DNA from: Breznakia sp. PF5-3
GTDB lineage: Bacteria; Bacillota_I; Bacilli_A; Erysipelotrichales; Erysipelotrichaceae
Direction: 5' to 3'
Assembly: GCF_029504745.1 (NCBI RefSeq)
Contig: NZ_JAQFIQ010000064.1
Coordinates: forward strand, 1-10,745
Length of the DNA: 10,745 nucleotides
The notes under the pieces were generated by a model that did no database searches, was not told where the DNA came from, and saw only the letters and a program-made list of their open reading frames with translations. Shown in pieces: positions 1-10,537 of this stretch (position 1 is its first letter; each line of letters opens with the position of its first letter). Both the position numbers and the translations under genes were made by a program.

Positions 1-3000
1 TACTGTAATTGCTACTTTTGATCCATCCACTGTACTACTTGCTTCCGCTTTCGCTAAGTCTATTACTTTCGCATTATTTAATCCTGCTACTTCTTCTTTA
101 CTAATTGCAAAATCATTTGCTCCTATTCGTTCTTTATTCGTTGGATTTTCTTCTATAGAATCTTTTACTGTTACCTTTACAGTTTTGCTTACTGCTGATG
201 CTCCACTTCCATAACTATATGTTACATTATAACTTCCTAGTGTTCCTGCTTTAATTGTTGTAAAAGTCATCGCTGTTACTACTGGTGTTGGATTGCTTCC
301 ATCTGCACTTGTTACTTTTGCATCATTTACTGTAATTAATGCTTCTTTGTTTGCTAATGCTTTCGCTTCAGCTACAGAAATAAATGCGTCTTTTGCACTA
401 AGTGCATTTGATCTATCATTTGATATTTCATTTTCATCTGCTACTACTGTTACTTTTACGGTAGTACTTTTTAAACCTGTGCCACTTCCATAACTATACG
501 TCACATTATAGCTTCCTAGCGTTCCTGCTTTAATTGTTGTGAAATCACTTGCTGTTACTACTGGTGTTACACTTGTTCCACCTGCTGTCGCTGTTGCACT
601 GTTAACATTTATCAATGCTTCTTTATTTGCCAATGCTTGTGCTTCACTTACTTTTATAATTGCATCTTTTGCATTTACTGATGTTTGGCTTCCATCATCT
701 GTTATCGTTACTACTACACTCTTTTCTACTAATGTAGCTCCACTTCCATAACTATAATTTAAGGTTACTGTTTTTGCTGTTGTCGCATTTTTTACTAATG
801 CATATTCAGTATCACTTAATTTTGGTTTATCTGTTGTTCCATCTACTTTTGTTACAACTGCTTTTGTTGCATCTAATAATGCATCTTTATTTGCCAATCC
901 ATTTGCTTGTGTTAATGTTAATGTCACATTTTCTGCATTTAATGAATTCTCTCCATTTGTTTTTGCATCATCTGCAATTACTGTCACCTTTACTGTTTTA
1001 CTTACAGCTGATGCTCCACTTCCATAACTATATGTTACATTATAACTTCCTAGTGTTCCTAGTTTGATTGTTGTAAAAGTCATCGCTGTTACTACTGGTG
1101 TTGGATTACTTCCATCTGCACTTGTTACTTTTGCATCATTTACTGTAATTAATGCTTCTTTGTTTGCTAATGCTTTCGCTTCGCTTACTTTAATAAATGC
1201 ATCTTTTGCACTAAGTGCATTTGATCTATCATTTGATATTTCATTTTCATCTGCTACTACTGTTACTTTTACGGTCGTACTTTTTAGAGTTGCTCCGCTT
1301 CCATAACTATACGTCACATTGTACGTTCCTAGCGTTCCCGCTTTAATTGTTGTGAAATCACTTGCTGTTACTACTGGTGTTACACTTGTTCCACCTGCTG
1401 TCGCTGTTGCACTGTTAACATTTATCAATGCTTCTTTATTTGCCAATGCTTGTGCTTCACTTACTTTTATAATTGCATCTTTTGCATTCACTGATGTTTG
1501 GCTTCCATCATCTGTTATCGTTACTACTACACTCTTTTCTACTAATGTAGCTCCACTTCCATAACTATAATTTAAGGTTACTGTTTTTGCTGCTGTCGCA
1601 TTTTTTACTAATGCATATTCAGTATCACTTAATTTTGGTTTATCTGTTGTTCCATCTGCTTTTGTTACAACTGCTTTTGTTGCATCTAATAATGCATCTT
1701 TATTTGCCAATCCATTTGCTTGTGTTAATGTTAATGTCACATTTTCTGCGTTTAATGAATTCTCTCCATTTGTTTTTGCATCATCTGCAATTACAGTTAC
1801 TTTTACAGTTTTACTTACTGCTGATGTTCCACTTCCATAACTATATGTTACATTATAACTTCCTAGCTTTCCTGCTTTGATTGTTGTAAAGTCACTTGCT
1901 GTTACTACTGGTGTTGGATTACTTCCATCTGTACTTGTTACTTTTGCATCATTTACTGTAATTAATGCTTCTTTGTTTGCTAATGCTTTCGCTTCGCTTA
2001 CTTTAATAAATGCATCTTTTGCATTTATTGCTTTTGTTTTATCTGGTGATACTTCCCAACCTTTGTCTAACACGACATATGTTTTTGCTTTCGTCTCAGT
2101 TAAATTTGTTCTTGTGTCTTTTAATGTATAACTTACTACATATGTTCCAGGACTACTTGTATTAATTGCTGTCGTTGGTGAGTAAGTTAATTTCAAATTC
2201 GTAGGATCGCTTGCCAAAGAAAGTAAACTACTTCCATCATAAGTTTTTCCTTTAAGTCCATCTCTTAAATTTATTGTTGCACTTCCATATTCAATAAACA
2301 CCTTTTCTACACCTACATTCAATGTAGGGCGTCCCACCACTTTAAACTGTGCACTTGTTGATGTTATTGGGTCAAAAGGCATCTGTCCAAAGGTTGCTAC
2401 CTCGGTAATTGTTGTTTGACCATTTCCTACATCTGGTGCTGTCATTTCATAAGTAAATGCGGTCTTTCCTGAATTTACATTTGATGCACTTAGTGGTACT
2501 ACTAAATTGTTGGAAATATCAGTTGTATTGTATGCATTAACATTGTTAGTTATACTAGTTCCGTTTGATTTTGGATTATTTCCAGTAAAAAGATTTCCTT
2601 CGCTATCTTTTAATTGCTCAATACGCGTATTTGCATTAATAGTTGCTAGTGCTGTACTACTTACTGTTGTCAACTCATGTTTCACTTGAATCGTTTCATT
2701 AGGGTATGCAAAACTTGTTGTTGTATTTACTTGTGTCTCAAAAATCCCATCCTTATTTCTATCAGCCCAAAATGATGTAGCATCATGAGTAGGTGGCCAA
2801 TCTGTATAATATGTAGAATTGAAAGTAAGCGACGCAGTTCCTACCGGTGTAGAAGTACCATCTGGATGTACTTCTGGAACCCAGCTACTCATAGCAAAAT
2901 ATACATTTTTATAATCGGATCCAAATACAGTTTTACCTCCAATAGAATAGATTCTTTGAAATCCCCCTATACTTACTGTCAATTGACCATCGCCTGTTTC

Positions 3001-4002
3001 TGGATTAGTACACACAAAATTCATTTTAAAATCTTTTGCGTTACTGCCTCCCACAACGTTTCTCTCATAACTTTCACCACTTATTGGTTTTAATACACTA
3101 TGGGTTGTACCCTTCATATAATATCCATAAACCCCATTACCAAAAGCACTAGTTGAATAAGCAGAATCTAGGGTAAACATTGCATTCCACAATAATCCAT
3201 TTGGCATTTGTGATTGATTTATATTTGACAAAGTATAACCATTTTGTCTTTCCACAGTATATAAGTTTTTATCTACCATCCCTGTGTTATACATGATGTG
3301 ACCTGCTGTTACTTCTTTATTAGGGTTTGTATGTAATGCAAAACTAACTCCATCTGCTTCTGCTGCAGTAAACGTTCCTTCAATTACAAAACTACGTGAA
3401 AAATCTAAGGTAAACTTTGAATTTACTAATCCTGCTGTATATTTGGAAAAACTTATTGTGTTCCCATTGATAAATGGAGAATTTGTATCTTCTGATTTTG
3501 ATATTTTAAATGCTTCAGATAAGCCTCCTGAAGAGAATGGTGTGACTAATTTTGTCATCACATCTGTCGAAACTTGATCTGACTTTTCTTTTTGTACTGA
3601 TTGAATATTATCTACTTCTACACTAATTGTCGTATCTAATTTTTCATATCCATCGTCAGATGCGTTTTCTTCACTATCTCCTGCTTTATTTATTTTTTTT
3701 ATATAACTTACATTAAAGTTAAATGTTCCGTTTTCATTTGCCTCATAAGTAGGATTACTCAAATCAACTTGCACACCTAAGTCATCTTTAATTGCAACAA
3801 TTTCATACATTGTTGTATCAACATCAGATAAATCAAAGTTGATTGATGCCTTCGTCTTATCATCACTGTACTCAACGTCACTGCGTATCTGTGGTATATT
3901 TTCATTTTCATTTGCTACCACATTTGAATACAAAGATGAAACACTTGTAATTCCTATCATGAAAGCAATTAAAACTTTCGTAAATTTACTAATTTTTTTC
4001 AT
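1..4002 (-). CDS. Large secreted / cell-surface protein, 5'-complete and 3'-truncated by the window edge (at least 1334 aa): signal peptide, N-terminal beta-rich region, ConA-like (L-type lectin-like) domain, unassigned beta region, DUF5011-like Ig domain, then Big_3-like Ig repeat array. Putative lectin adhesin.
   Basis: Absent from the supplied track, presumably because no stop lies inside the window. I read every + strand triplet in phase 1,4,7... from 1 to 4002 and none is tta/cta/tca, so the minus frame is open throughout. ATG is at 4002..4000, AGAAAGG at 4016..4010 (7 nt upstream), and an in-frame TAA at 4020..4018. The N-terminus MKKISKFTKVLIAFMIGITSVSSLYSNVVA/NENEN looks like a Gram-positive signal peptide. 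The translation is non-degenerate and domain-like along its whole length. The C-terminus (any LPXTG or other anchor) lies outside the window. Confidence 0.88.
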   Translation of the reverse strand, partial: MKKISKFTKVLIAFMIGITSVSSLYSNVVANENENIPQIRSDVEYSDDKTKASINFDLSDVDTTMYEIVAIKDDLGVQVDLSNPTYEANENGTFNFNVSYIKKINKAGDSEENASDDGYEKLDTTISVEVDNIQSVQKEKSDQVSTDVMTKLVTPFSSGGLSEAFKISKSEDTNSPFINGNTISFSKYTAGLVNSKFTLDFSRSFVIEGTFTAAEADGVSFALHTNPNKEVTAGHIMYNTGMVDKNLYTVERQNGYTLSNINQSQMPNGLLWNAMFTLDSAYSTSAFGNGVYGYYMKGTTHSVLKPISGESYERNVVGGSNAKDFKMNFVCTNPETGDGQLTVSIGGFQRIYSIGGKTVFGSDYKNVYFAMSSWVPEVHPDGTSTPVGTASLTFNSTYYTDWPPTHDATSFWADRNKDGIFETQVNTTTSFAYPNETIQVKHELTTVSSTALATINANTRIEQLKDSEGNLFTGNNPKSNGTSITNNVNAYNTTDISNNLVVPLSASNVNSGKTAFTYEMTAPDVGNGQTTITEVATFGQMPFDPITSTSAQFKVVGRPTLNVGVEKVFIEYGSATINLRDGLKGKTYDGSSLLSLASDPTNLKLTYSPTTAINTSSPGTYVVSYTLKDTRTNLTETKAKTYVVLDKGWEVSPDKTKAINAKDAFIKVSEAKALANKEALITVNDAKVTSTDGSNPTPVVTASDFTTIKAGKLGSYNVTYSYGSGTSAVSKTVKVTVIADDAKTNGENSLNAENVTLTLTQANGLANKDALLDATKAVVTKADGTTDKPKLSDTEYALVKNATAAKTVTLNYSYGSGATLVEKSVVVTITDDGSQTSVNAKDAIIKVSEAQALANKEALINVNSATATAGGTSVTPVVTASDFTTIKAGTLGTYNVTYSYGSGATLKSTTVKVTVVADENEISNDRSNALSAKDAFIKVSEAKALANKEALITVNDAKVTSADGSNPTPVVTAMTFTTIKLGTLGSYNVTYSYGSGASAVSKTVKVTVIADDAKTNGENSLNAENVTLTLTQANGLANKDALLDATKAVVTKVDGTTDKPKLSDTEYALVKNATTAKTVTLNYSYGSGATLVEKSVVVTITDDGSQTSVNAKDAIIKVSEAQALANKEALINVNSATATAGGTSVTPVVTASDFTTIKAGTLGSYNVTYSYGSGTGLKSTTVKVTVVADENEISNDRSNALSAKDAFISVAEAKALANKEALITVNDAKVTSADGSNPTPVVTAMTFTTIKAGTLGSYNVTYSYGSGASAVSKTVKVTVKDSIEENPTNKERIGANDFAISKEEVAGLNNAKVIDLAKAEASSTVDGSKVAITV
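166..2025 (-). repeat. In-frame tandem repeat, period 813 bp (271 codons), about 2.3 copies. Each unit encodes three different ~83-94-aa Big_3-like Ig domains, each with a YSYGSG core, giving the order 1-2-3-1-2-3-1.
   Basis: The shadow ORFs in the supplied track recur at an exact +813 offset: 774..1067 vs 1587..1880, ends 751 vs 1564, ends 493 vs 1306, starts 1064 vs 1877. Direct comparison of 241-300 with 1054-1113 gives 4 mismatches in 60. Homology fades left of ~166 and right of ~2025. Approximate copy boundaries are 2025-1213, 1212-400 and 399-166. Confidence 0.9.
2070..2330 (-). other. DUF5011-like bacterial Ig-like domain of the surface protein
   Basis: RPTLNVGVEKVFIEYGSATINLRDGLKGKTYDGSSLLSLASDPTNLKLTYSPTTAINTSSPGTYVVSYTLKDTRTNLTETKAKTYVV follows the pattern P-x-I/L-x-x-G ... 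hE-x-G-S ... D-G ... GTY-x-V-x-Y-x-h-x-D ... h-x-V-x-V typical of these domains. Confidence 0.5.
2800..3545 (-). other. ConA-like / L-type (legume-like) lectin domain of the surface protein (about 248 aa, boundaries approximate)
   Basis: The translation FSSGGLSEAFKISKSEDTNSPFINGNTISFSKYTAGLVNSKFTLDFSRSFVIEGTFTAAEADGVSFALHTNP...NAMFTLDSAYSTS...LTVSIGG...VYFAMSSW fits the remembered L-type lectin pattern: F-x-F-x-F/I strand followed by xDGhxFhh, then a later hhEFDT-like strand. Length also fits. Assigned from memory of the family, not from an HMM. Confidence 0.5.
3913..4002 (-). other. Signal peptide of the large surface protein (about 30 aa)
   Basis: MKKISKFTK (basic n-region), VLIAFMIGITSVSSL (hydrophobic core), YSNVVA|NE (A-x-A-like cleavage context). 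The cleavage site is approximate. Confidence 0.7.
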
Positions 4003-4155
4003 TTTTTTTCCTTTCTGTTAATAATTCTTTAAACTATTCCTATGCGTTTCTTTTATCGCCCTTCATTCCCTCCTTTAACGCAAAAGCAATTTCATTAAAA
4101 AAACGAAAACCCCAATTCGTTGATTTAAGTAATAAAATTGCTTTTTCAAACGTTA

Positions 4156-4182
4156 GACGGTCTCTTCTCAATACTGGTTTTA
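4156..4182 (-). promoter_or_regulatory. Candidate ECF-sigma-type promoter upstream of the surface-protein gene: TTAAAAC-N17-CGTCTAA
   Basis: On the minus strand AAAC is at 4180..4177, the 17-nt spacer at 4176..4160 and CGTC at 4159..4156. Core and spacing are the same as the site upstream of the sigma gene (5616-5642). Lies ~154 nt upstream of the ATG at 4002. AAC at -35 and CGT at -10 is the general ECF promoter signature. Confidence 0.45.
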
Positions 4183-4291
4183 AATTTCTTAAAATAATTT
4201 TCACTATTCGTTTACACTATAAAAATAGTGTTACTGTTTTAACTTTATATACGCACTATATTTTCAAATTTTAAATAGCTTTGTAATATGA

Positions 4292-5569
4292 TTAATCAAT
4301 ATTGATAACGTATCGTTCATAATTCCCTGCAATATTATACACATATAGTTCAAGTATCCCATTAAAAGGCCCTTTGATTTGATGATCATTTGATAAACTC
4401 TCTTTCTTTTGGTCATGAACATAATAAGATTTTTCATAATCAATTTTAATATCGTCAATAATATCAAATGTAAGTACATTATTTTTATACTTAATATTTT
4501 CTAATTTTGGCTCATCACGATAAATATTTGTAATCTTTATCGTCTTGTAATCTTCTTCAGTTGAAACTATATATGTTCCATTTTCATTCACAATAAAACT
4601 AATATAGTTTTCTTTTTTATCGCGGATATTCAAACTTTCTCCATCTTTATTTTTTATTTTAACTTGTTGTCTTGCAACTGGTTGATTAAAATACGCGTAT
4701 ACAATTACATCTTGATTTGTTAAAGCTGTATCATAGGTAATAGTCTCTAACATAAGACTGATATCTTCACTTTGATTTGTATAATTATAATAAAGTATCC
4801 CTGCTGTTGAAAACACGCCCAACGCAAGGAGCGCTCTCCCTATTTTTTCAGTAATTGAAACAATCCCCATCTTAGCTGAACTTGGTAATGCTTTTTCGGT
4901 GATTAATCCAAAAATAAACTTACTTTTATCCGCTGGCATTGAAATATTTTCCACCATGTAGGAAAAAAACTGAAAATACATTAATGGAAATACAATATTC
5001 ATGTTCTTTGTTGTCAGCCCCTTTTTATATAAATCTGGTTTAATCATATCGCGTACGATTTTTAACCTTGTTTTTACTGTACCCTCTGGCATCTGCATAA
5101 CTTCAGCTATTTCTTTGACACTTAAATCATCAAAATATTTTAATTTTGCAATTTGTTCATAATTAGTAGGCATCTTTGCAAATTCTGTAGCTATGGTGTT
5201 CCATATTTCATTGCGATTAAATAAAGTAGCTGAATTTTCTTTATTTTCAAGTGTATCAATGATTCCATCATCACTATATGTCTGTTTTAACGTTCTACTA
5301 TTTTTTCTTAAGATTTCAATAATTTGTCGATATGCAACTGAAAAAAGCCATGAATGAAATGCAGAAAAATTATTGAGTGTATGAATTTTTGTGTATACTT
5401 TAATAAATGTTTCTTGAACAACCTCTTCTGCGTCTGCATTGTTTTTTAAATATGAAACAGCAAAATAATATATTGTTGATTCATAGTGTGCATAGATTTT
5501 CTCAAAAGCTTTCTGATCCCCTTTCATTAACTGCAATACAGTTTCATCTTCAATCTTTTTTGTTTTCAT
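4292..5569 (-). CDS. ECF-family (sigma-70 group 4) RNA polymerase sigma factor fused to a C-terminal extension with a transmembrane helix and a ~165-aa beta-rich domain (membrane-tethered, one-component sigma)
   Basis: 425-aa ORF with GAGGG 9 nt upstream of the ATG. Residues ~1-90 match sigma region 2 (DQKAFEKIYAHYESTIYYFAVSYLKNNADAEEVVQETFIKVY...FHSWLFSVAYRQIIEILRK). Residues ~125-178 match region 4 (PTNYEQIAKLKYFDDLSVKEIAEVMQMPEGTVKTRLKIVRDMI). A clear TM segment IGRALLALGVFSTAGILYY covers residues 243-261 (nt 4787-4843). Residues 262-425 have a beta-sandwich-like composition. No HxxxCxxC zinc anti-sigma motif is present. Confidence 0.85.
   Translation of the reverse strand: MKTKKIEDETVLQLMKGDQKAFEKIYAHYESTIYYFAVSYLKNNADAEEVVQETFIKVYTKIHTLNNFSAFHSWLFSVAYRQIIEILRKNSRTLKQTYSDDGIIDTLENKENSATLFNRNEIWNTIATEFAKMPTNYEQIAKLKYFDDLSVKEIAEVMQMPEGTVKTRLKIVRDMIKPDLYKKGLTTKNMNIVFPLMYFQFFSYMVENISMPADKSKFIFGLITEKALPSSAKMGIVSITEKIGRALLALGVFSTAGILYYNYTNQSEDISLMLETITYDTALTNQDVIVYAYFNQPVARQQVKIKNKDGESLNIRDKKENYISFIVNENGTYIVSTEEDYKTIKITNIYRDEPKLENIKYKNNVLTFDIIDDIKIDYEKSYYVHDQKKESLSNDHQIKGPFNGILELYVYNIAGNYERYVINID
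4787..4843 (-). other. Transmembrane helix within the sigma-factor fusion protein
   Basis: Nineteen uncharged hydrophobic residues, IGRALLALGVFSTAGILYY, preceded by EK and followed by the acidic/polar NYTNQSEDIS. A weaker aromatic hydrophobic patch, IVFPLMYFQFFSYMV (residues 192-206), leaves the topology formally ambiguous. Confidence 0.7.
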
Positions 5570-5615
5570 ACTTTCGCCCTCACTTTTTACTTTAAACAGA
5601 ACCTGTCATAAATAG

Positions 5616-5642
5616 GACGAAGTAATTGTAGATTTCGTTTAA
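5616..5642 (-). promoter_or_regulatory. Candidate autoregulatory ECF-type promoter upstream of the sigma gene: GTTAAAC-N17-CGTCCTA
   Basis: On the minus strand AAAC is at 5640..5637, the 17-nt spacer at 5636..5620 and CGTC at 5619..5616, ~47 nt upstream of the ATG at 5569. I saw no convincing sigmaA -35/-10 pair between the pot terminator and this gene. Confidence 0.5.
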
Positions 5643-5661
5643 CTTTTTTTTATTTTCATAA

Positions 5662-5720
5662 TTTTTATAAAAAAATACCATGATGAATACTCCTTATACG
5701 AAATATTAATCATGGTATTT
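5662..5720 (-). terminator. Rho-independent terminator of the pot operon
   Basis: Begins 10 nt after the potCD stop. 12-bp arms AAATACCATGAT (5673-5684) and ATCATGGTATTT (5709-5720), with an inner AATA/TATT extension (5686-5689 / 5704-5707). On the minus strand the downstream arm runs into a continuous 7-T stretch (ATCATGGTATTTTTTTAT: 3 T's in the arm, 4 beyond it). Confidence 0.6.
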
Positions 5721-5729
5721 CAAGTAACC

Positions 5730-7592
5730 TTATTTTGCTTTCACTTTTATCCAAAGCTCAGCTAATACCTTTTTCATTTTCTCATTATAGTTAAAGATTT
5801 CATCTTTTTCATATCCGCTACGAGGAATATAAGCACTGTTCCCTTTAAACTCATTATTTGCTAATTTTTCTCTTACCTTTTCTACACTTGATGTATAGCC
5901 TACATAAGCAGAATTGCCTTCTGCTACACTCTCTTCAAGATTGTAGTTAATATATTCCTCAGCTAGTAAAGGACATGTACTATTCTTAGGAATTACCATT
6001 CCATCTGACCATAGATTTGTCCCTTCTAATGGTTCAAAATATTGCATCTTAGAATTTTCATCATGGATATAAGCAGCATCGCCACTATAAACAACAGCAA
6101 TATCCTTTTCACCATTGATCATTCCATCAATAACTTCATCTGTGACAATAACTGGATTATTTTCTTTCAACTCTTTAAGCCATTCATAAGCTTCATTGAT
6201 TTCTTTCTCATCCGTTGTATTCATAGAATATCCCAATGCTTTCAATGCCATCATGAAAGAATCTCTTTCACTATCATAAACATATATTCTACCCTTATAC
6301 TTAGGATTTTTTAAAACATTAAACCCTTCTTTTTCAACATCTTCTTTCTTCACTGTTTCACTATTGTAGATAATTCCTACACTTCCCCAAAAATATGGAA
6401 TACTATATTCATTTTTAGGGTCATAAGACAAATTCAACACTTCAGAAGATAATCCACCATAATTGGTAATATTTTTTAAATCAATCTTTTTCAACATGTC
6501 TTCTTGAATCATTCTTTCTATCATATAATCTGATGGAATTAATACATCATAACTCTCTCCACCTAACAGTTTTGTATACATTTCCTCATTGGAAGCAAAA
6601 ACAGAATAATTTACAGTTACATTATATTTTTCTTCAAACCCTGAAATTGTGTCTTCTCCTACATACTCCCCCCAATTAAATACATTTAACGTATTACAAC
6701 CATATTCTTTGATTGGATCTATCTCACTTGAAGCATTTCCTCGCAATGCATTCAATCCAGCAATCCCCAATCCTAAAACAATCGCTGAAATTACAAACAC
6801 ATGACGATATGATCGATTGGTATATCTCTTTTTTCGCATAGACACAAGGTTCACCACAACAAGAGCAACTGTAATAAATAGGACTATGATAGTTGATAAA
6901 GAGTTAATCGTTGGATTTACCCGTTTTGACATTGTATACACCATTATTGAAATATTATTAACGCCTTTTCCGGTTACAAAATAAGAGATAATAAAATCAT
7001 CAAATGACATTGTAAAAGCAATCAATGCTCCTGCTACAATTCCAGGCATCAATTGAGGTATCACTACTTTGCGAAGTGCATAAAAAGGGGTAGCTCCCAA
7101 ATCCATTGCAGCCTCTGCTAAATTTGGATCTAAACGTCGTATTCGTGGCATAACACTTAGCATCACATAAGGGATACAAAAAATAATATGAGATAAGAGT
7201 AAAGTGAAAAAACCTTTTTCAATATGTAATGAAGTAAAGAATAACATCAATCCAATAGCGGTAACAATCTCTGGATTCATAATTGGTAAATTATTGATTT
7301 GTATTACAATCTCCCGTAATATTTTCTTTGATCTTGAAAGTCCAATACTAGCCAATGTTCCAACAATCGTTGATACAACAGTTGCAATAATTGCAATCAA
7401 CAATGTATAGTAAATCGATTCCAGCATTGTCTTATTAGCAAACATTTGCTCATACCAACGAAGTGAAAATCCTGTAAACTTTGATAATGACTTAGAACTA
7501 TTAAAAGAAAAGAACATCATATATATGATAGGTAAATAAAAGAAGACAAGCATTCCACCTAAAAAGATTTTTGATCCAATTCGCTTTTTCAT
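5730..7592 (-). CDS. potCD: Spermidine/putrescine ABC transporter permease PotC fused to the substrate-binding protein PotD (620 aa)
   Basis: Residues 1-~255 form a six-TM permease with the EAA loop EAAMDLGATPFYALRKVVIP. An extra TM, HVFVISAIVLGLGIAGLNAL, covers residues ~263-283. Residues ~296-620 are PotD-like (NVFNWGEY..., YDVLIPSDYMIERM..., IPYFWGSVGIIYN..., LWSDGMVIPKNS...). The start overlaps the potB stop (TAATG). Confidence 0.85.
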   Translation of the reverse strand: MKKRIGSKIFLGGMLVFFYLPIIYMMFFSFNSSKSLSKFTGFSLRWYEQMFANKTMLESIYYTLLIAIIATVVSTIVGTLASIGLSRSKKILREIVIQINNLPIMNPEIVTAIGLMLFFTSLHIEKGFFTLLLSHIIFCIPYVMLSVMPRIRRLDPNLAEAAMDLGATPFYALRKVVIPQLMPGIVAGALIAFTMSFDDFIISYFVTGKGVNNISIMVYTMSKRVNPTINSLSTIIVLFITVALVVVNLVSMRKKRYTNRSYRHVFVISAIVLGLGIAGLNALRGNASSEIDPIKEYGCNTLNVFNWGEYVGEDTISGFEEKYNVTVNYSVFASNEEMYTKLLGGESYDVLIPSDYMIERMIQEDMLKKIDLKNITNYGGLSSEVLNLSYDPKNEYSIPYFWGSVGIIYNSETVKKEDVEKEGFNVLKNPKYKGRIYVYDSERDSFMMALKALGYSMNTTDEKEINEAYEWLKELKENNPVIVTDEVIDGMINGEKDIAVVYSGDAAYIHDENSKMQYFEPLEGTNLWSDGMVIPKNSTCPLLAEEYINYNLEESVAEGNSAYVGYTSSVEKVREKLANNEFKGNSAYIPRSGYEKDEIFNYNEKMKKVLAELWIKVKAK

Positions 7593-8417: not shown

Positions 8418-9989
8418 TTAGAACCCCATTTTTTCCATCACATGGATATCTTCTGGATCAAAATCAATTCCTACATGTGTATCAACAGTTGCATTTCTAG
8501 TTGTATGAATTTTAAACTCTCTACCTATTGTTGAAAACGATACAATATATTTTCCTGGTGTTAGTTCATCAACATCAAAATCATAATCAACATTTCTGAC
8601 TTCAATATCTTCATCTGTATCCAAATTCCAACTTACCGCATCTGCCCAAGTTCTCAAATCTGTATCCAACGCTTGGCTTTCCTGAATTTCATCTAGGGTA
8701 GTAAAAAAATCAAAAGCTGCAATCCCAATCCGCTTCTTTTCATCTGTTACATATTTTTGCTTTACCACAAAAATATCAACTTGAATCTTAGTACCTTTGC
8801 TCGTTGAGAAAGTAACTGGATAAGTTCCTGCTTCTGCTTTTATATCATACTCTATATTGGCAATCGACAAATAATCTTCACTTTCCGCATCCCATGCCTG
8901 TGCATCTGCTCTAGCGATAATATCGTCATCATTCAATTCTTCTAAATCTTGAATATCTAAATAGAAATTATTTGCTGATATGTATTCACCTGCTTCTTCA
9001 TTATATATAGGTTTCTTTTCATACACAGTCAATGTGACATCAACATGGCTTCCTCTCGATGTTTCGACAATAATTTCATTGTGCACGCCCTTAAACAAAA
9101 CAGATAATACTTTCCCATTCAATTTTCCTTTTCCCTTTTTCACAATATCTATATCTTCAGGACGAATCACAATATCAACATCTTCATTCTTTTTAAATCC
9201 AAAATCAACACATTCATAGTTATGCTCATCAAAAGCAACTAGATAATCTTCTTTCATGATTCCATCAATAATATTACTATCCCCAATAAAATTTGCCACA
9301 TATTCGTTTTCTGGCTCATTATAGATATCAGTTGGTGATCCAACTTGTTGGATTTCTCCATCTCTCATGACAACAATTTTATCTGACATTGTTAATGCCT
9401 CTTCTTGATCATGCGTCACATAGATAAACGTTATTCCTACTTCTTGTTGAATCTTTTTAAGCTCTAATTGCATTTCTTTTCTCAACTTTAAATCAAGTGC
9501 CCCTAAAGGTTCATCCAATAGCAAAACCTTTGGTTCATTTACAAGCGCACGAGCAATAGCAATACGTTGTTGTTGCCCACCAGAAAGTTGATCGACATTT
9601 CTCTCCTCGTACCCTTCCAAGCTTACTAGCTTCAACATTCTTGTAACTTTTTGACGAATAACATCATCACTCATTTTTTTGATTTTTAAGCCAAATGCTA
9701 CATTATCATAAATATTCATATGTGGAAACAATGCATATTTTTGAAATACGGTATTGAGTTCTCTTTTGTATGATGGAAGCTTTGAAATTTCTTCATTATC
9801 AAAAACAATACTGCCTTCATCTTGTTCCAAAAAACCTCCAAGAATTCTAAGTAATGTGGTTTTACCACAACCTGATGGTCCTAGTAAAGTTACAAATTCA
9901 TTTTCATAAATATCCAAATTAATACCTTTAAGAACCAATGTATCATCAAAGTTCTTAACGATATTTTTAAACTGTATCAATTTTTTCAT
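8418..9989 (-). CDS. potA: Spermidine/putrescine ABC transporter ATP-binding protein PotA with a ~175-aa insertion in the C-terminal TOBE domain (523 aa from the preferred start)
   Basis: Walker [10 protein letters not shown], signature LSGGQQQR, Walker B LLLDEP, H-loop VTHD. TOBE-like strands follow: [11 protein letters not shown]...[18 protein letters not shown]...[16 protein letters not shown] prefer the start at ATG 9989..9987 ([10 protein letters not shown]...) with GAGAGGA 8 nt upstream. The track start at 10031 would overlap the upstream gene by 28 nt and has no RBS that I can see. Confidence 0.88.
8487..9017 (-). other. Insertion in the PotA TOBE domain made of two tandem ~75-85-aa Ig-like (Big_3-like) repeats
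   Basis: Repeat 1 (~8763-8987): [73 protein letters not shown]. Repeat 2 (~8499-8732): [77 protein letters not shown]. Shared columns: ADA-x-x-W, D-x-x-x-x-N-[IV]-[ED]-YD-[IF], G-x-Y-x-V-[TS]-FST. Confidence 0.6.
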
Positions 9990-10003
9990 TTCCAAATCCT
10001 CTC

Positions 10004-10537
10004 TTAAAAATTTGGTGGCGAAATAATCCATAGAATTTCTGCTGTTCTATCTCCTTTATTTTTTAAATAATGGGTATGCTTCCCATTCAAATAAAATGTT
10101 TCTCCCTTATTCATCTTTTCTATTTTGCCACCATTTATTAGTTCTATTTCTCCATTTAAAACAAAGCCAAACTCTTCACCCTCATGTGGTTCAATCGGTG
10201 AAGATTCTGCATTCGGTGCTAACTTTAATATAATTGGTTCCATATCATTCTTTTGTGCGTTAGGAACAATAAACTTCGTGGTGGCACCATCTTTTTCATT
10301 AATATAGTAATCATCCTCGCCAAAGACAAAACGAGTATTCTTTTCCTCTTTAAAAAATTCACTTAAATTGGTTCCTAGTGCTTCCAATATATCTTCTAGT
10401 GTTGCAATAGAAGGAGAAGTAAGATCACGTTCTAGCTGACTTAAAAAACCTTTGGTAAGCTCACTTCGAGCTGCCAATTCTTCTAATGTTAAGTTATTTT
10501 TAGTTCTCAATTCTTTAATTTTTAAGCCGATATTCAT
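10004..10537 (-). CDS. XRE-family HTH + cupin-domain transcriptional regulator (PuuR-like architecture), first gene of the pot operon
   Basis: The N-terminal [54 protein letters not shown] is a typical HTH_3 motif. The C-terminal [44 protein letters not shown] is a cupin motif. AAGGAG precedes the ATG. The stop at 10006..10004 lies 14 nt before the potA ATG. Confidence 0.85.

Follow-up and report, generated by a model that had tools for sequence, protein, structure and literature searches.

Several described systems join an ECF sigma factor to a membrane-spanning regulatory part in a single polypeptide, and ECF extensions that contain a transmembrane (TM) helix are, as the earlier note on this DNA had it, a recognised class (PMC8999054; PMC7826278). 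In IutY of Pseudomonas putida, an ECF243 hybrid, an ECF sigma and a membrane-spanning regulatory and sensory part form one protein, and sequential proteolysis by Prc and then RseP frees the sigma domain (PMC8999054; PMC5411451). IutY is a Gram-negative protein of the FecI/FecR type with a FecR-like anti-sigma domain, signalled by a TonB-dependent outer-membrane receptor and involved in iron uptake. In the actinobacterial groups ECF52 (SCO4117), ECF48 and ECF53, too, a C-terminal extension containing one or two TM helices follows the ECF core, and there is no separate anti-sigma gene. In these groups the extension includes a zinc-finger (ZAS-type) anti-sigma domain, to which SCO4117 adds a proline-rich region and a carbohydrate-binding domain. 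SCO4117 has an extracytoplasmic domain, and proteolytic activation has been proposed (PMC8999054; PMC5826349). In Bacillus subtilis, by contrast, SigW-RsiW and SigV-RsiV are pairs of separate sigma and anti-sigma proteins. RsiV is cleaved first by signal peptidase and next by RasP, and RasP-dependent regulated proteolysis, with signal peptidase as the site-1 protease of RsiV, is the standard Firmicute route (PMC6066255).

The window analysed here, a stretch of 10,745 nucleotides from Breznakia sp. PF5-3, contains a gene that encodes, from N- to C-terminus, an ECF sigma, a two-helix linker, a TM helix and a tandem Ig-like ectodomain (Table 1). The protein can be placed among the TM-fused ECF sigmas of the IutY/ECF48/ECF52/ECF53 type, since core, TM helix and extracytoplasmic part share a single ORF and no anti-sigma gene adjoins it. 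It differs from IutY in having no FecR domain, no outer membrane, an Ig-like ectodomain and a likely adhesin target, and from ECF48, ECF52 and ECF53 in its linker of about 50 aa, which forms two helices and contains neither Cys nor His, in its two Ig-like domains and in its occurrence in Erysipelotrichales. It shares with the B. subtilis systems a core nearest to SigW in sequence and structure and a promoter of the same general type, whereas it has neither zf-HC2 nor DUF4179.

Table 1. Features of the sigma-fusion locus, with positions in the window.
Feature	Residues	Coordinates	Strand	Details
Giant repeat surface protein (adhesin)		1..4002	(-)	Partial, more than 1334 aa; signal peptide; ATG at 4002
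Candidate ECF-type promoter of adhesin gene		4156..4180	(-)	AAACCAGTATTGAGAAGAGACCGTC; second AAAC-N17-CGTC match
Sigma-fusion gene (Breznakia)		4292..5569	(-)	ATG start, 425 aa + stop codon
Ig-like domain 2	about 348-425	4295..4528	(-)	pLDDT 94-98
Ig-like domain 1	about 270-347	4529..4762	(-)	Membrane-proximal; pLDDT 88-97
Single TM helix	about 243-265	4775..4843	(-)	N-in/C-out; Gly-, Ser-, Thr-, Ala-rich
Conserved cytoplasmic two-helix module	183-232	4874..5023	(-)	Helices 187-208 and 213-227; candidate built-in anti-sigma element
Sigma region 4	130-170	5060..5182	(-)	Pfam PF08281 Sigma70_r4_2, E 1e-9
Sigma region 2	25-93	5291..5497	(-)	Pfam PF04542 Sigma70_r2, E 1.4e-15; pLDDT above 90
Candidate ECF-type promoter of sigma gene		5616..5640	(-)	AAACGAAATCTACAATTACTTCGTC; just downstream of pot terminator
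Intrinsic terminator of pot operon		5665..5721	(-)	~21-bp stem then U-run; -23.4 kcal/mol, z = -5.8

The first 180 or so residues had been read as a complete ECF sigma, and this holds. The Pfam families of regions 2 and 4 and Sigma70_ECF (PF07638), which covers residues 13-177, all score above their gathering scores on the 425-aa protein, and NCBIfam TIGR02937 (sigma70-ECF) scores 94.9 against a cutoff of 42.9. Neither Pfam nor NCBIfam gives a region-3 match on this protein; with sigma-2 and sigma-4 present and no sigma-3 or sigma-1.1, it belongs to the ECF (group 4) sigma-70 factors. Foldseek and PDB sequence searches with the sigma core match ECF sigmas only, the nearest solved structure being B. 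subtilis SigW (E 1.8e-21 in the PDB sequence search). The SigW equivalog models (NF007223 / TIGR02948) score below their cutoffs, at 108.1 bits against 209 and 93.2 against 243.1, and by sequence the protein is SigW-like, not SigW.

The TM helix had been placed at residues 243-261, where the Kyte-Doolittle maximum of the 425-aa protein does lie, at merely 1.41. We find the helix convincing despite this value because an uncharged run of 16-33 residues occupies the same position in all 24 aligned homologs and because of the charge pattern around it. The net charge summed over the 24 homologs is +43 in the 15 residues before the helix and -31 after it, which therefore indicates an N-in/C-out orientation and puts the C-terminal domain outside the cell, in line with its proposed extracytoplasmic position. 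About 8-10 residues separate the helix from Ig-like domain 1 (Ig1). A conserved AxA signal-peptidase site was looked for by eye in the alignment after the TM helix and no convincing one was found, the -3 position often being Asn or Asp; small residues often precede Ig1. There is also no match to DUF4179, the amphipathic-helix region that in RsiV-type anti-sigma factors follows the TM helix and masks a signal-peptidase site.

Between sigma-4 and the TM helix lies the two-helix module, in which the family motif KPxLxKRGxxPxxYxSxxFxPxxxxxF is kept across the homolog alignment. It had been asked whether residues 192-206 form a second TM helix. We reject this because most homologs have charged residues there; this segment is instead an amphipathic helix within the module. 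In AlphaFold models the linker rises from a pLDDT of about 40 with a shallow alignment to 70-81 with a 69-sequence alignment, and in the latter model sigma-2 and sigma-4 adopt a closed, anti-sigma-bound shape. The modelled sigma-2/sigma-4 pair superposes on anti-sigma-bound SigW (TM 0.72, RMSD 4.0-4.5 A), on RpoE-NepR (TM 0.72-0.73, RMSD 4.7-4.8 A) and on CnrH-CnrY (TM 0.73, RMSD 6.6 A). It gives no such fit with sigma-E, sigma-H or sigma-L in their RNAP-bound state (TM 0.31-0.43, RMSD about 26 A). NepR and CnrY are two-helix anti-sigma domains, and the candidate inhibitory element predicted here also consists of two helices, although NepR and CnrY are separate proteins that act in trans and have no sequence similarity to the Breznakia module. 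From these models, the two-helix module probably acts as a built-in anti-sigma element. The shallow-alignment model shows neither the linker confidence nor the closed arrangement, and AlphaFold may be biased towards the closed shape, since anti-sigma complexes make up many of the solved structures of ECF sigmas. Also against this reading is the lack of a sequence match between the linker and any known anti-sigma domain: no Pfam, NCBIfam or PDB sequence match was found in 17 to 31 family members, and no ZAS (HxxxCxxC) or FecR-like anti-sigma domain is recognisable between sigma-4 and the TM helix.

Residues 270-425 are beta-rich, as had been noted of the C-terminal region, and confidently folded. 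The further remark that this domain resembles nothing that can be named does not stand, as AlphaFold and Foldseek together identify two tandem Ig-like beta-sandwiches (pLDDT 88-98). The Foldseek matches are tandem Ig domains, among them NCAM Ig1-2, sDscam, Kit D4-D5 and intimin, at E values from 1e-5 to 1e-3. In sequence the extension is without a counterpart in the databases searched: none of the 17 members scanned has a significant Pfam family there, and Pfam, NCBIfam and PDB sequence searches with the whole extension return no match. The second domain (Ig2) carries the family motifs NIDKxAP, DDxSGIDY and YDxxGN, and the Ig2 module is repeated up to 32 times in giant surface proteins of 1000-4500 aa. 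These giant proteins score above the Pfam cutoff for BiPBP_C, and some also match DUF7743, Big_3_2 or Big_13.

A relationship between Ig1 and the adhesins is visible solely by profile-profile comparison with the pooled adhesin N-terminal domains, in which hhalign gives a probability of 88%, P 3e-6 and a score of 34.8; the maximum score in 200 column shuffles is 17.6. Profile-profile comparisons that involved Ig2, other segments of the giant proteins or the partner proteins described below showed no relation (P at least 0.04). A profile of the sigma C-terminus finds no adhesin or partner by hmmsearch among all ORFs of the related loci, pairwise BLASTP is not significant, and a homologue search to deepen the adhesin N-terminal alignment returned no matches. 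The profile-profile match suggests that the membrane-proximal Ig1 and the domain at the N-terminus of the cognate surface proteins are related.

On its upstream side the sigma gene is bordered by a fused potC-potD gene that ends in the strong terminator of Table 1, and on its downstream side by the adhesin. The first 100-135 aa of this adhesin share homology with the N-terminal ends of surface proteins encoded downstream of sigma genes in the related loci L001 and L011 (E about 5e-9). The intergenic ORFs that flank the sigma gene are of 24-54 aa only, with no TM helix and no known domain, and we agree that no anti-sigma gene is adjacent. The 54-aa ORF (4040-4204), considered as a hidden anti-sigma, overlaps the promoter, has neither a TM helix nor a ribosome-binding site and is probably spurious. 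No known RNA families were found in 3900-5800. The statement that the sigma has no separate partner is true of the window, in which a partner HMM detects no partner or partner-like domain, but it is atypical of the family. Each of the other 11 distinct loci of the family has, beside the sigma gene and mostly at tight spacing, a gene for a membrane-anchored partner of about 220-440 aa. Genes for sigma, partner and giant surface protein occur together in ten of these, and L093 has sigma and partner only; the giant proteins are homologous between loci. A signal-peptidase (Peptidase_S26) gene is found in two of the 12 distinct loci, inside the sigma operon of L007 and adjacent to that of L096, and none is found in the window. 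A gene for the cytoskeletal protein bactofilin adjoins the cassette in L007, L009 and L096.

Within the window the promoter pattern AAAC-N17-CGTC has exactly two matches, one ahead of the sigma gene and one ahead of the adhesin, against 0.10 expected, and none of 200 shuffles reaches two. An ECF-type motif ahead of the sigma gene implies autoregulation. L001, L003, L007, L092, L094 and L096 have homologous motifs ahead of the sigma gene or of the operon that contains it; no motif was recognised in the other four of the 12 distinct loci (L009, L011, L093 and L095). L003 and L092 have paired sigma and surface-protein promoters of the form AAC-N16-GCGTCNTAC, and in L096 both -10 elements of the pair are changed together (TGAAC-N17-GAACTAA). 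Across the 96 loci compared, the L003/L092 and L096 patterns occur at those positions only. A contig scan with the full-length alignment had hit the sigma core, and thereby yielded generic ECF sigma loci and one true family locus, and we reused these as motif background. The sigma factor probably switches on its own gene together with the adjacent giant surface protein gene, and the downstream adhesin is the likely regulatory target.

Such a protein most likely works as a sigma, anti-sigma and sensor in one polypeptide that is released by regulated proteolysis, a reading that on the whole of our analysis we would back at about even. At rest, the two helices would hold sigma-2 and sigma-4 in a closed, RNA-polymerase-incompetent state and the TM helix would anchor the protein in the membrane. 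A signal perceived by the Ig-like ectodomain would then open the juxtamembrane region to a site-1 protease. The signal could be a ligand, contact with the partner protein (whose gene is adjacent in most relatives) or contact with the related N-terminal domain of the adhesin, and the protease could be type I signal peptidase, as for RsiV. The site-2 protease RasP would next cut inside the TM helix, and the freed sigma, with the two helices lost or displaced, would bind RNA polymerase and transcribe its own gene, in positive feedback, and the giant adhesin gene. The precedents are the fused IutY, released by Prc and RseP, and the ECF52 protein SCO4117, for which processing is proposed (PMC8999054), together with the two-step cleavage of RsiV (PMC6066255); the Peptidase_S26 genes at the sigma operons of L007 and L096 also speak for this reading. 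Against release, a RasP cut in the TM helix would leave the inhibitory helices covalently attached to the sigma, so that they would have to be taken off with the sigma kept intact, the window has neither a partner gene nor an S26 peptidase gene, and the AxA site is wanting.

More tentatively, and with considerable doubt on our part, we speculate that the sensor is matched to its target. Each Ig1 would be a relative of the N-terminal domain of its own surface protein, and the paralogous Breznakia cassettes would be private circuits in which the sigma detects either the ligand of its adhesin or the adhesin N-terminal domain, with a new two-helix anti-sigma module acting in cis. If so, a shared ligand would mean ligand-induced adhesin expression, and adhesin sensing would mean feedback on export or surface occupancy.

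It seems unlikely that the sigma acts from its anchor, on the model of ToxR or CadC, such that an ectodomain signal or partner binding reshapes the two-helix module and the core, still uncleaved, opens and brings in RNA polymerase at the membrane. The linker is a conserved segment with a predicted structure and not a passive tether, and relatives have a long, low-complexity Gly/Ala-rich spacer ahead of the TM helix that could give reach, whereas in the 425-aa protein only about 12 residues lie between the second linker helix and the TM helix, a distance that would keep the sigma core tight against the membrane. Because sigma leaves core polymerase after initiation, elongation need not be blocked by a tether. 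In ECF41 and ECF238, C-terminal extensions are known to regulate by conformation, yet for both TM-fused sigmas that have been studied in experiments proteolysis is reported or proposed (PMC8999054). The Gly/Ser/Thr-rich TM helix may, in addition, resemble a site-2 protease substrate. Were the sigma active at its anchor, the giant adhesin would be transcribed, translated and secreted near the membrane as a by-product.

That the extension mainly meets a positive or structural need, and is not an inhibitor, is quite improbable. The helices and anchor would then serve stability or polymerase activity, partly as in ECF41 and ECF42, control would act mostly through sigma-gene transcription, and the role of the Ig domains would be to localise the protein beside the adhesin secretion site. 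The C-terminal extensions of ECF41 and ECF42 can have both positive and negative roles. An autoregulatory promoter would permit transcriptional control, and the bactofilin (L007, L009, L096) and signal-peptidase (L007, L096) genes hint at a localised secretion apparatus. However, the predicted closed arrangement of sigma-2 and sigma-4 is the inactive one, an ungated promoter under positive feedback would leave the system locked on, and the conservation of an extracytoplasmic domain whose surface motifs are invariant speaks for sensing. ECF41 is classed under conformational change and ECF42 under protein interaction (PMC8999054).

The single-ORF plan is common to 24 aligned full-length homologs (21-35% identity, 417-446 aa) from independent assemblies, isolate genomes of Breznakia pachnodae among them, and to a 99%-identical NCBI protein annotated in unclassified Breznakia. 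About 70 clusters at 50% identity, mostly from Erysipelotrichales, have the same plan, and Breznakia genomes contain 2-3 paralogs each. In a Pfam scan of ten tandem-Ig proteins of 255-459 aa, both sigma domains were found in each of seven (417-459 aa), region 4 only in a 349-aa protein and no Pfam match in fragments of 283 and 255 aa. No stand-alone C-terminal part occurs among the best 150 matches. That a frameshift or assembly error joined the sigma gene to a separate membrane-protein gene, for which we found nothing in favour, is so remote a prospect in view of this family-wide conservation that we set it aside; the architecture is kept in the 99%-identical protein and the 24 homologs, and the union of sigma and sensor in one polypeptide, as first proposed, is therefore genuine. 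A fusion of sigma, TM helix and sensor is of a kind already known from IutY and ECF52; the Breznakia-type family itself is undescribed.

How a membrane-anchored sigma reaches RNA polymerase has been studied in the Gram-negative IutY and partly in the actinobacterial SCO4117. The family described here is a compact Gram-positive system with sensor, gate and sigma in one 425-aa protein. Its activity has an obvious read-out in its own promoter and in that of one adhesin, its natural paralogs lend themselves to specificity swaps, and at this locus no partner gene complicates the genetics. The two-helix module after sigma-4 and the tandem Ig module both lie outside Pfam and NCBIfam, and each could be made a new family. 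If the resemblance of Ig1 to the adhesin N-terminus is functional, the sensor domain would be derived from, or shared with, the protein that it regulates. Our results also suggest how Erysipelotrichales of the insect gut may control very large adhesins, each via its own dedicated sigma factor.

The 425-residue protein begins as an ECF sigma factor with regions 2 and 4, as an earlier note had said. Its Pfam matches, Sigma70_r2 (residues 25-93), Sigma70_r4_2 (130-170) and Sigma70_ECF (13-177), all exceed gathering scores, and it passes the NCBIfam ECF superfamily model TIGR02937. The solved protein nearest to this core is B. subtilis SigW (E 1.8e-21). SigW is also the best of the NCBIfam equivalog models, all of which the protein fails (108 vs 209 bits), and by its sequence the core is SigW-like, outside the SigW equivalog. 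Past about residue 185, Pfam and NCBIfam give no match. The single-ORF plan recurs in a 99%-identical protein from unclassified Breznakia (Erysipelotrichaceae), labelled 'RNA polymerase sigma factor', and in 24 homologs of 417-446 aa that align full-length with 21-35% identity. This excludes a frameshift joining two genes, which had been raised as a possible artefact. Breznakia genomes have at least 2-3 paralogs of the fusion.

The hydropathy maximum lies at residues 243-261, exactly where a TM helix had been proposed, though it is modest (1.41). An uncharged run of 16-33 residues occupies this position in 24/24 aligned members, and the net charge summed over the family is +43 in the 15 residues before it and -31 in the 15 after. 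On sequence grounds, this asymmetry places the sigma core in the cytoplasm and the C-terminal domain outside, in agreement with the extracytoplasmic location first suggested. Residues 192-206, considered earlier as a possible second TM, include charged residues in most aligned members, so that candidate is rejected and the segment is read as an amphipathic helix. The C-terminal domain had been described as beta-rich and as resembling nothing that could be named. The first part holds: AlphaFold2 predicts two beta-sandwich domains, Ig1 (residues ~274-346) and Ig2 (~355-424), with pLDDT of 87-96 from 24 sequences and 88-98 from 69. The second part does not, the Foldseek matches being generic tandem Ig domains (NCAM Ig1-2, sDscam, Kit D4-D5, intimin). 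No Pfam model was significant for this domain in any of the 17 members scanned. Residues 178-425, used as a profile in an exhaustive search, retrieved 1482 proteins; the best 150 comprise about 60-70 sigma fusions of 410-460 aa, the rest being giant proteins of 900-4500 aa in which the second Ig module is repeated in tandem, in up to 32 copies. Giant proteins with this module have BiPBP_C above the Pfam cutoff, and some have DUF7743, Big_3_2 or Big_13. A Pfam scan of ten tandem-Ig proteins (255-459 aa) revealed no stand-alone anti-sigma version: both sigma domains were present in 7/7 proteins of 417-459 aa, one of 349 aa had region 4 only, and fragments of 283 and 255 aa had no match.

The neighbours of the sigma gene are as first described, a strong terminator upstream and the adhesin gene 289 nt downstream. 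The terminator ends a same-strand series of an HTH-cupin regulator gene, potA, potB and a fused potC-potD. The ECF-type pattern AAAC-N17-CGTC, expected 0.10 times in 10.7 kb, is present exactly twice, a count reached in 0/200 shuffles. Both copies are on the coding strand, ~70 nt 5' of the sigma ATG and ~180 nt 5' of the adhesin ATG. This pairing of candidate sigma and surface-protein promoters recurs among relatives with locus-specific sequence. The extended patterns of the relative loci L003, L092 and L096 match at those positions only, across all 96 fetched loci, and the form common to both L096 promoters indicates that the -10 element has changed in the two together. The motif lies 5' of the sigma gene in L001 and L094, where the giant gene starts 38-50 nt behind another cassette gene, the partner gene. 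It lies 5' of a bactofilin-unknown-S26 peptidase-sigma operon in L007, and degenerate copies precede the surface-protein genes of L007 and L005. None was recognised in L009, L011, L093 or L095. A further motif, AGGTCTAAT, occurs both in the sigma leader and in the short stretch 5' of the giant gene in L001 and L094, and is extended in L001 to ACAGGTCTAAT..AATGAA.

Features of the window and of related loci
Feature	Locus	Position	Strand	Description
Sigma-fusion ORF	window	4292-5569	-	425 aa
Terminator	window	5665-5721		strong, ends pot genes; z = -5.8
Adhesin gene	window	start 4002, off window end	-	giant repeat protein with signal peptide
Adhesin residues ~150-1334	window	1-3550	-
Adhesin leader	window	4003-4150	-	~145 nt
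Leader hairpin	window	4082-4145	-	z = -2.2
Upstream ORF	window	end 4040	-	MKGDKRNA, 8 codons
Intergenic ORF	window	4040-4204	-	54 aa, GTG start
potA	window	8418-10031	-	537 aa
potC-potD	window	5730-7592	-	one 620-aa ORF
Promoter pair	L003			GTGAACTTTTTCGCTGACTTAAGCGTCATAC and ATGAACCTAAATTTTGACTTATGCGTCTTAC
Promoter pair	L092			TGAAACCCTTTTTCTAAGTTGTGCGTCTTAC and GAAAACCTGTTTTTTTACTCGTGCGTCTTAC
Promoter pair	L096			TGAAC-N17-GAACTAA in both
Regions sharing AGGTCTAAT	L001	7826-8000, 10474-10523		equivalents in L094
Partner gene	L001	9274-10473		equivalents in 10 other loci
Bactofilin module	L007	5283-7955		same operon as sigma
Bactofilin module	L096	173-2488		divergent from sigma
Bactofilin gene	L009	5575-6561		alone of module

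The adhesin leader contains a long hairpin enclosing a terminator-like AACGAA-N8-TTCGTT, then T7, and 3' of it an upstream ORF with a perfect Shine-Dalgarno; Rfam gave no match to this leader, which may be a second regulatory layer. The basic intergenic ORF overlaps the adhesin promoter candidate, has no TM helix, ribosome-binding site or known domain, and is probably spurious. Adhesin residues ~150-560 look lectin-like by eye (DGVSFALH), with no significant Pfam match, and near-identical repeats of ~260 aa each begin at about residue 600. In PotA, the ABC and TOBE domains extend to ~residue 335 and are followed by ~200 aa that include two beta-rich ~70-aa repeats and give a weak SdrD_B match, an extension unusual in a cytoplasmic ATPase. 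The permease PotC and the solute-binding protein PotD are fused.

A partner gene (product ~220-440 aa) lies next to the sigma gene in 11/11 other distinct family loci, with a gap of <=20 nt or an overlap in ten and 73 nt in L093. The partner protein combines a signal peptide with a beta-rich domain and Flg_new (Listeria-Bacteroides) repeats, and also has an acidic linker and a C-terminal TM anchor; lacking an N-terminal cytoplasmic domain, it is not a classical anti-sigma factor. The window has no partner gene, so the fused sigma here stands alone beside its likely target. Large surface-protein genes (724 to >4800 aa; LRR, Bact_surface_Ig-like or SdrD_B) are found in 10/11 of the other loci. 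The downstream surface proteins fall into groups of homologs that span loci, and the N-terminal 100-135 aa of the window adhesin match those of L001 and L011 (E ~5e-9). A module of bactofilin, an unknown ~300-aa protein and Peptidase_S26 (type I signal peptidase) adjoins some cassettes and could supply either a site-1 protease or a localised site at which giant adhesins are secreted.

We compared the ectodomain with a pool of N-terminal domains, taken from the first surface protein downstream of sigma in the window, L001, L011, L003 and L092 (an LRR protein in the last two). With hhalign, the Ig1 profile matched this pool (probability 88%, P 3e-6, score 34.8-37.5), against a maximum of 17.6 in 200 column shuffles and 13.7 for the reversed alignment. 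Ig2 did not match it (P = 0.13-0.17), and P was 0.04 or more for every other segment of giant or partner proteins. Ig1 and the N-terminus of the downstream surface protein probably share a domain, with the proviso that the alignments are shallow.

Directly C-terminal of sigma-4 is a conserved linker with the family motif KPxLxKRGxxPxxYxSxxFxPxxxxxF....LS, lacking Cys and His in the window protein. Its profile matched nothing in Pfam, NCBIfam or PDB sequences. AlphaFold with 24 sequences gave a linker pLDDT of ~40, and a sigma-2/sigma-4 pair fitting all structures poorly (RMSD ~16 A). With 69 sequences, linker helices 187-208 and 213-227 reached pLDDT 70-81, and the sigma-2/sigma-4 unit fitted SigW-RsiW (TM 0.72, RMSD 4.0-4.5 A), RpoE-NepR (0.72-0.73, 4.7-4.8 A) and CnrH-CnrY (0.73, 6.6 A), while RNA-polymerase-bound sigma-E, sigma-H and sigma-L fitted badly (0.31-0.43, ~26 A). 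This fit to anti-sigma-bound rather than polymerase-bound sigmas supports the linker as a candidate built-in two-helix inhibitory element, with the proviso that AlphaFold may favour closed ECF structures.

We infer regulated proteolysis as the activation route, from the fused precedents IutY, cleaved by Prc and then RseP, and ECF52 (PMC8999054), from the Firmicute route of RsiV, cleaved by signal peptidase and then RasP (PMC6066255), from the Gly/Ser/Thr-rich TM helix, and from the S26 peptidase gene, only occasional in the cassette. Proteolytic cleavage would be followed by removal or displacement of the covalently attached linker helices. Alternatively, the sigma may be active while membrane-tethered, or the extension may be chiefly structural or for localisation. 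The Breznakia fusion would act in the manner of IutY and ECF52-type sigmas; however, it lacks the ZAS or FecR-like anti-sigma domain that defines them, and differs in taxon, ectodomain and target. We found no paper on a Firmicute fused ECF of the Breznakia type. The fusion could still belong to an existing numbered ECF group. A similar motif after sigma-4 (…YEKKNGIKL…PLLLWLF…), joined by a low-complexity spacer to a single TM helix, is found in ECF sigmas of more distant Firmicute relatives (P0026-P0041; Clostridia, Erysipelotrichales), whose ectodomains are quite different and unrelated (LRR_5, propeller-like repeats, others). This common plan with unrelated ectodomains suggests that the fused sigmas of the wider Firmicute clade form a modular 'plug-in sensor' family.
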